A model generated the notes under the pieces. That model searched no databases and was not told the DNA's origin. It saw only the letters and a program-made list of their open reading frames with translations. This document shows positions 13,575 to 14,714 of a stretch of 64,000 bases of DNA, piece after piece (position 1 is the first letter of the stretch; each line of letters opens with the position of its first letter). Both the position numbers and the translations under genes were made by a program. The DNA comes from Escherichia coli (GTDB lineage Bacteria; Pseudomonadota; Gammaproteobacteria; Enterobacterales; Enterobacteriaceae): the NCBI RefSeq assembly GCF_003334405.1, contig NZ_QOWM01000017.1; one strand, given 5' to 3'.

Positions 13575-14714
13575 ATGAGCGCGGGAAGCCCAAAATTCAC
13601 CGTTCGCCGCATTGCGGCTTTGTCACTGGTTTCGCTATGGCTGGCAGGCTGTTCTGACACTTCAAATCCACCGGCACCGGTCAGCTCCGTTAATGGCAAT
13701 GCGCCTGCAAATACTAATTCTGGTATGTTGATTACGCCGCCGCCGAAAATGGGGACGACGTCTACAGCGCAGCAACCGCAAATTCAGCCGGTACAGCAGC
13801 CACAAATTCAGGCTACTCAACAACCGCAAATCCAGCCAGTGCAGCCAGTAGCTCAGCAGCCGGTACAGATGGAAAACGGACGCATCGTCTATAACCGTCA
13901 GTATGGGAACATTCCGAAAGGCAGTTATAGCGGCAGTACCTATACCGTGAAAAAAGGCGACACACTTTTCTATATCGCCTGGATTACTGGCAACGATTTC
14001 CGTGACCTTGCTCAGCGCAACAATATTCAGGCACCATACGCGCTGAACGTTGGTCAGACCTTGCAGGTGGGTAATGCTTCCGGTACGCCAATCACTGGCG
14101 GAAATGCCATTACCCAGGCCGACGCAGCAGAGCAAGGAGTTGTGATCAAGCCTGCACAAAATTCCACCGTTGCTGTTGCGTCGCAACCGACAATTACGTA
14201 TTCTGAATCTTCGGGTGAACAGAGTGCTAACAAAATGTTGCCGAACAACAAGCCAGCTGCGACCACGGTCACAGCGCCTGTAACGGTACCAACAGCAAGC
14301 ACAACCGAGCCAACTGTCAGCAGTACATCAACCAGTACGCCTATCTCCACCTGGCGCTGGCCGACTGAGGGCAAAGTGATCGAAACCTTTGGCGCTTCTG
14401 AGGGGGGCAACAAGGGGATTGATATCGCAGGCAGCAAAGGACAGGCAATTATCGCGACCGCAGATGGCCGCGTTGTTTATGCTGGTAACGCGCTGCGCGG
14501 CTACGGTAATCTGATTATCATCAAACATAATGATGATTACCTGAGTGCCTACGCCCATAACGACACAATGCTGGTCCGGGAACAACAAGAAGTGAAGGCG
14601 GGGCAAAAAATAGCAACCATGGGTAGCACCGGAACCAGTTCAACACGCTTGCATTTTGAAATTCGTTACAAGGGGAAATCCGTAAACCCGCTGCGTTATT
14701 TGCCGCAGCGATAA
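13575..14714 (+). CDS. nlpD: Murein hydrolase activator lipoprotein NlpD (LysM + degenerate M23 domain)
   Basis: Track ORF 379 aa; lipobox LAGCS, Q/P-rich linker, LysM segment ([14 protein letters not shown]), C-terminal M23-like domain. Confidence 0.95.
13770..13841 (+). repeat. Three tandem imperfect 24-bp in-frame repeats in nlpD (QQPQIQ[PA][VT])
   Basis: Codon-phased units CAGCAACCGCAAATTCAGCCGGTA / CAGCAGCCACAAATTCAGGCTACT / CAACAACCGCAAATCCAGCCAGTG read directly from the sequence. Confidence 0.7.

Follow-up and report, generated by a model that had tools for sequence, protein, structure and literature searches.

Rare and recurrent in-frame length changes in a 24-bp tandem repeat of the NlpD linker in Escherichia coli

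An "unusual amino acid repeat" of NlpD reportedly figures already in the title of the 1994 nlpD paper (Ichikawa et al.; J Bacteriol 176:1630), and Lange & Hengge-Aronis 1994 belongs to the early accounts of the same region. Outside nlpD, short direct repeats that misalign or slip during replication, and so give rise to deletions and duplications, reportedly account for the lacI hotspots of Albertini, Farabaugh and Miller, and the tandem-repeat work of Bzymek and Lovett reportedly concerns the same kind of event. In 2009, the segment of NlpD was called its proline-glutamine-rich (P/Q-rich) repeat region (Tidhar et al., PMC2736372). Changes within nlpD itself have been described in other genera. 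In Salmonella Typhimurium UK-1, a 12-bp in-frame nlpD deletion was, in its authors' judgement, not part of the rpoS promoter region (Luo et al. 2012, PMC3391293), and in Pseudomonas fluorescens nlpD contains a transcription-dependent mutational hotspot, C565T, that is tied to the nested rpoS promoter (PMC11838912).

The repeat considered here lies in nlpD within a 64,000-nucleotide stretch of E. coli DNA (the window, to which all positions refer; features are on the plus strand unless stated otherwise). It is the same feature as the "unusual amino acid repeat", matched both by the 1994 title and by the later descriptions, and the NlpD repeat itself was thus already known. The present work adds a modest refinement in the form of a census of its length alleles, a step size set by the best-matched pair of units, and at least four origins for one deletion. 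Unlike this survey, the earlier papers on the NlpD repeat contain no population census of copy number. No prior report of nlpD as a VNTR locus, or of the deletion in O157:H7, was found in the literature searched, which is no proof of novelty.

The locus resembles the systems of slippage between short direct repeats in several respects. The nlpD breakpoints fall in repeats of 7–12 nt, the pair with the better match is the one more frequently involved, products occur in reciprocal forms, and deletions outnumber duplications. It differs from the classic systems in being known from natural alleles alone. The UK-1 deletion can be placed in the Q/P-rich linker from its published sequence and fits the 373- versus 377-residue forms of Salmonella NlpD, but it belongs to another genus and represents a four-residue step in a degenerate region, not the removal of entire units of a clean array. 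The P. fluorescens case likewise involves a mutational hotspot inside nlpD; C565T, however, is a base substitution at a promoter and depends on rpoS transcription, whereas the changes in E. coli are repeat-mediated indels 369 nt upstream of the rpoS start.

The nlpD coding sequence occupies 13575–14714 and encodes 379 residues from an ATG, an assignment supported by the open reading frame, by the NCBIfam model NF008123 and by the RefSeq annotation of matching loci. NF008123, the NlpD equivalog, aligns residues 4–379 with profile positions 1–365 at 678.7 bits, against a cut-off of 311. Neighbouring open reading frames and the RefSeq annotation of matching loci place the gene between pcm and rpoS in the order surE-pcm-nlpD-rpoS. 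This gene order, the equivalog match, a lipoprotein signal peptide with its lipobox, the LysM domain and the degenerate LytM/M23 domain at the C terminus together identify the product as NlpD, the cell-division lipoprotein that activates murein hydrolase (amidase AmiC). RefSeq/PGAP starts nlpD at a TTG (13620), 45 nt downstream of the ATG at 13575, to give a protein of 364 residues. The ATG looks more plausible as the start, because initiation at the TTG removes the positively charged n-region of the signal peptide (K7, R11, R12). Minus-strand open reading frames that run across the repeat (13662–14186, for example) were taken as shadow ORFs of nlpD.

NlpD is a lipoprotein (Tsang et al. 2017, PMC5533458). 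The lipobox, L-A-G-C, is read from the translation at residues 23–26 (13641–13652), where Cys26 carries the lipid and is residue 1 of the mature protein at the outer membrane. Among 40 enterobacterial NlpD sequences, G25 and C26 never vary, while conservation reaches at least 90% at both L23 and A24. The N-terminal linker that follows (residues 27–115; 13653–13919) tethers the LysM domain to the outer-membrane anchor. Some 72% of its residues are P, Q, S, T, N, A or G, and published DISOPRED predictions give disorder both for this linker before LysM and for that between LysM and dLytM (Tsang et al. 2017, PMC5533458). None of the solved structures covers this linker, the PDB relatives matching residues 230–379 only, and an AlphaFold2 run on the 40-sequence alignment returned a mean pLDDT of 33, with the M23 domain itself poor, and so says nothing about disorder.

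Beyond the linker, the LysM domain spans residues 123–165 (13941–14069; Pfam PF01476, E = 4.2e-12). The degenerate LytM or Peptidase_M23 domain, which in NlpD is amidase-activating (PMC5533458), spans residues 279–372 (14409–14690; Pfam PF01551, E = 4.6e-33). The N-terminal linker is the least conserved part of NlpD in the 40 enterobacterial sequences, with the exception of a 12-residue motif at residues 49–60 (13719–13754), just upstream of the repeat. In this motif M51 never varies; of the remaining eleven residues, M59 alone falls below 90% conservation. A weak midcell affinity has been reported for the NlpD linker alone (Tsang et al., PMC5533458), to which the presence of a conserved motif inside an otherwise variable linker may be related.

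The repeat consists of three imperfect 24-bp units at 13770–13841, in the nlpD frame, corresponding to residues 66–89. An earlier note on this DNA had claimed in-frame tandem 24-bp repeats in nlpD, and both its coordinates and its reading frame are exact. Unit 1 (13770–13793, CAGCAACCGCAAATTCAGCCGGTA) and unit 3 (13818–13841, CAACAACCGCAAATCCAGCCAGTG) encode QQPQIQPV, and unit 2 between them (13794–13817, CAGCAGCCACAAATTCAGGCTACT) encodes QQPQIQAT. A degenerate fourth unit (13842–13865, CAGCCAGTAGCTCAGCAGCCGGTA), which encodes QPVAQQPV and is involved in rearrangements of 72 bp and 9 bp, extends the Gln/Pro-rich stretch to residues 66–97. The DNA of the units is 63–83% identical, with 20/24 matches between units 1 and 3, 17/24 between units 1 and 2, and 15/24 between units 2 and 3. 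Tandem Repeats Finder reports a period of 24 over 13773–13837, with a score of 67 for 2.7 copies that match at 70% and contain no indels. This periodicity is beyond chance even at Q/P-rich composition. The 12 of 16 residue matches at an offset of eight were equalled in 0/20,000 shuffles of the whole protein and in 0/20,000 shuffles of the linker alone, and the 33 of 48 nucleotide matches at an offset of 24 were equalled in 1/20,000 shuffles of the linker codons.

Copy number was compared among complete E. coli genomes with a 301-nt query (window 13650–13950), which matches 5,421 of the 5,426. Alleles were counted by E-value thresholds in combination with synthetic and natural variant-allele queries under strict limits, the strict threshold of E <= 1e-125 being passable only by a near-ungapped alignment of full length. 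Sampled BLAST rows were all 301-bp spans and gave an appearance of invariance, which threshold counting overturned (76 genomes differ). The standard length is present in 5,345/5,421 genomes (98.6%), a class that takes in small indels such as −3 and −9. A 48-bp deletion, which is a clean loss of two units and leaves one, is found in 61/5,421 (1.1%). A 72-bp deletion occurs in two of the 5,421 (Z142-6 and USMARC-49610), the reciprocal of the 48-bp deletion (+48, five units) occurs in one, and one further genome is that of the divergent strain RM9387, in which three units are kept. An additional 11 genomes (0.2%) pass E <= 1e-75 at >=80% coverage and have no alignment at <= 1e-125. By BLAST arithmetic, they resemble alleles with an insertion or duplication whose alignment is broken into overlapping pieces, but none of the alleles tried corresponds to them (+24, +48, +72 and >=+96 among DNA queries; +15, +36, +45 and +60 among protein look-ups). 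Variant genomes make up ~1.2% of complete E. coli genomes.

Synthetic alleles of −24, +24, +72 and >=+96 had no match among the 5,426 complete E. coli genomes, and no complete E. coli genome falls in the 90–95% blastn identity band where a change of +/−24 was expected. Small indels outside whole units comprise the shortening of PPP to PP in strain A30 and the loss of one QPV in strain 13E0725. A perfect +72 duplication is present in a draft E. coli assembly, GCA_044690665.1. Exact look-up in ~15 billion proteins found the one-unit protein in 793 contigs, with Shigella dysenteriae, S. flexneri and S. boydii among its named sources. The same resource holds the five-unit protein in 3 contigs, a 57-bp deletion form, 9-bp deletion forms, and a two-unit (PV-PV) protein in single contigs on two backgrounds, the sole single-unit step seen. 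A four-unit NlpD protein was not found by exact look-up among these ~15 billion proteins, nor was any protein, on up to three protein backgrounds, that corresponds to the microhomology-compatible duplications of +15, +36, +45 and +60.

The natural alleles of E. coli and Shigella thus include 1, 2, 3 and 5 units together with a 72-bp deletion and duplication, all of them in frame. The comparison of nlpD copy number among E. coli genomes that the earlier note had proposed therefore yields several length alleles and not an invariant number. Its description of the array as a substrate for slippage stands in so far as natural alleles have their breakpoints in short direct repeats. The extent of the variation is another matter: length changes are rare, the standard length prevailing at 98.6%, and single-unit steps are absent from complete genomes.

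The breakpoints of the length alleles fall in the two longest exact direct repeats of the array, a 12-mer and an 11-mer. The 11-nt repeat CAACCGCAAAT (13773–13783 and 13821–13831; spacing 48 nt, 21/24 identity in context) is the breakpoint of the 48-bp deletion and of the +48 allele, and the 12-nt repeat CAGCCGGTACAG (13785–13796 and 13857–13868; spacing 72 nt) is that of the 72-bp deletion and of the +72 allele. Reciprocal deletion and duplication products are accordingly known for both pairs. At the junction of the common 48-bp deletion stands a hybrid unit composed of the head of unit 1 and the tail of unit 3, and the five-unit allele contains the reciprocal hybrid. In strain PEC145, the 48-bp deletion has the other junction, with its crossover in GTGCAGC at unit boundaries. 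Further direct repeats in the array are CAAATTCAG (9 nt, spacing 24 nt), CAGCAGCC (8 nt, spacing 60 nt) and CAGCCAGT (8 nt, spacing 9 nt), and the 9-bp deletion takes out one of the two copies of the last. Length changes follow the best-matching pair of units and not adjacent units. Since the best match is between units 1 and 3, and neighbouring units match more poorly, most changes involve two units at a time. As at other sites of microhomology-mediated indels, the breakpoints lie in short direct repeats and the changes recur on independent backgrounds.

Recurrence of the 48-bp deletion is seen in a comparison of the flanks around nlpD, which provides 2,626 shared columns with 79 variable sites. 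The deletion allele of O157:H7 EC4115 shows 0 flank differences from the three-unit O157:H7 strain ECP19-598, and the deletion strains P276M and ECCWS199 show 0 differences from the three-unit haplotype of the window itself. A third flank haplotype, 27–32 differences from the others, is shared by deletion strains 22-250 and AMSHJX01, and PEC145 constitutes a fourth. Four flank haplotypes, together with two junction types, therefore give the 48-bp deletion a minimum of four origins.

The O157:H7 strains with the 48-bp deletion include EC4115, TW14359, SS17 and SS52, all of which are members of O157:H7 lineage I/II (PMC5552260). The same deletion is found in assorted commensal and animal isolates. 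It sets the O157:H7 lineage I/II genomes apart from three-unit O157:H7 genomes whose 2.6-kb flanks are otherwise identical. The deletion is, for O157:H7, a possible lineage marker, yet it is homoplasic in E. coli/Shigella and can mislead lineage typing if used alone.

Three units are kept in E. fergusonii-like sequences. An Escherichia-like genome, GCA_026283405.1 (~90.5–93.5% nucleotide identity), has seven nlpD units by way of a perfect 72-nt tandem duplication of three units, and its nlpD lacks most of the degenerate fourth unit (end QPVKMEN). In Salmonella, Citrobacter, Enterobacter, Kosakonia and others, the corresponding Q/P-rich stretch is about as long but degenerate, with no clean repeat, and in Yersinia NlpD the repeat region is absent altogether (PMC2736372). 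One Citrobacter freundii NlpD (P0050; 362 residues, 284 cluster members) is missing 13 residues between two QIQPV motifs in comparison with P0034 and P0077. Judged from these sequences, the clean triplet arose when an older linker of loose periodicity was homogenised at the level of Escherichia, and NlpD linker indels are general across genera.

The explanation that we consider likely is that of a low-complexity tether repeat with a rare, tolerated, microhomology-driven and probably near-neutral length polymorphism, which neither acts as a switch nor affects rpoS. The repeat would code for a Gln/Pro-rich stretch in a disordered tether that joins the outer-membrane lipid anchor to the peptidoglycan-binding LysM domain. 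With units that are imperfect, misalignment of the DNA, whether by replication slippage or by unequal exchange between short direct repeats, would be only occasional. It would favour the best microhomology: changes of −/+48 bp would use the 11-mer of units 1 and 3, and changes of −/+72 bp the 12-mer found where units 1 and 4 end. As all products are in frame, the tether would merely be shortened or lengthened. The products appear to be tolerated because whole lineages carry them, and this tolerance in turn points to a polymorphism in length that recurs, stays at low frequency and is probably near-neutral. The repeat, the allele census, the breakpoints, the reciprocal products and the recurrence are observed; the slippage mechanism, the neutrality and the lack of an effect on rpoS are what we infer from them.

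The possibility that tether length itself matters is an unlikely one that nevertheless draws on several of the same observations. In that case, the number of repeats would set the reach of NlpD to septal peptidoglycan, three units would be under stabilising selection, and the one-unit allele would be adaptive in O157:H7 lineage I/II and in Shigella. Such a role would fit the model of Tsang et al., in which outer-membrane-bound NlpD is kept from reaching peptidoglycan (PMC5533458), although the two long unstructured linkers make it unlikely that outer-membrane localisation alone limits reach (Tsang et al., PMC5533458). Three units predominate in E. coli and are shared by E. fergusonii-like sequences and by the divergent RM9387, which could be due to tether length being under stabilising selection and not to a low mutation rate alone. 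In other enterobacterial genera, however, linker length and sequence differ and there is no clean repeat, and Yersinia lacks the region (PMC2736372). The recurrence of the same deletion at least four times, with fixation in pathogen lineages, could similarly reflect selection rather than mutational bias, but it is fully predicted by the best microhomology, and the deletion is also found in the commensal and animal isolates. That the two-unit loss in particular was selected, with a tether 16 residues shorter altering the coupling of amidase activation to outer-membrane invagination, or envelope or virulence properties, is very doubtful; if true, it would explain independent fixation in O157:H7 lineage I/II, several Shigella lineages and other clones.

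The earlier note stated that the rpoS promoter lies within nlpD, which agrees with a major promoter in the middle of the gene (PMC10372455), from which the rpoS 5′ UTR measures 567 nt (PMC10372455). The rpoS ATG is at 14777, and subtraction of the 567-nt UTR puts the start site at ~14210. A major promoter is inferred at 14176–14210, with TTGCGT at 14176–14181, a 17-nt spacer and TATTCT at 14199–14204, the hexamers having been read by eye; a consensus promoter scan of 13400–14800, which applies stricter rules, called no site. From the last base of the repeat (13841) it is 369 nt downstream to the rpoS start site and ~335 nt to the −35 region. The repeat lies neither within the leader nor within the core or proximal promoter. 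The suggestion in the earlier note that indels here could affect the rpoS leader context is therefore not borne out, the array being outside both the 567-nt leader and the promoter.

Modulation of rpoS by repeat indels, through an altered promoter or leader context within nlpD, is accordingly highly improbable, even with the major rpoS promoter inside the gene. Co-transcription of the repeat with rpoS is confined to weak read-through from the nlpD promoters nlpDp1/p2 (PMC2676305), and these transcripts offer the idea its other foothold. They are countered by the distance of the repeat from the start site, the leader and the −35 region, and by the in-frame nature of all variants, which entails no polarity effect. 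The strains retrieved as carriers of the 48-bp deletion, of the 72-bp deletion and of the +48 allele are, moreover, all annotated with one RpoS protein, WP_000081550.1, and the nlpD linker deletion of Salmonella UK-1 was interpreted in the same way by those who described it (PMC3391293). An effect of repeat length on rpoS is thus unlikely on the sequence evidence.

The rpoS coding sequence of the window has a lesion of its own. At codon 217 (15425–15427), an amber stop, TAG, replaces GAG, the change being G649T relative to the intact rpoS of Z142-6. The window strain would make a truncated sigma-S without region 4 and is probably an rpoS-null isolate. In strain 13E0725, which carries the 9-bp nlpD deletion, rpoS is also annotated as frameshifted, another case of the frequent inactivation of rpoS at this locus. 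Three chimeric proteins (P0091, P0044 and P0094) consist of the NlpD N-terminus and LysM domain fused to Sigma70_r4 (403 aa) or to UbiD-like domains (550–560 aa). Their composition suggests that, in some isolates, a deletion has joined nlpD to rpoS or to genes lying beyond it.

A contingency-type simple-sequence locus for phase or antigenic variation, with copy number changing at high frequency, is scarcely credible, since the tandem in-frame repeat in a cell-envelope lipoprotein and its several length alleles are set against units that are far from near-perfect (15–20/24 nt and 63–83% identical; 70% matches in TRF), a single length in 98.6% of genomes, variants that are shared within lineages and by close relatives such as O157:H7 sub-lineages instead of differing frequently among close strains, alleles that all differ by multiples of 3 nt and keep the frame with no on/off switching of expression, and a protein that faces the periplasm in the standard model (PMC5533458).

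As a known low-complexity spacer with a rare and probably near-neutral length polymorphism, the repeat matters little for mechanism. The bearing of tether length on septal amidase regulation is a question that was raised and left open by Tsang et al. 2017 (PMC5533458), and the allele series found here (1, 2, 3 and 5 units, +/−72 bp) provides a natural test of tether length in septal amidase activation.
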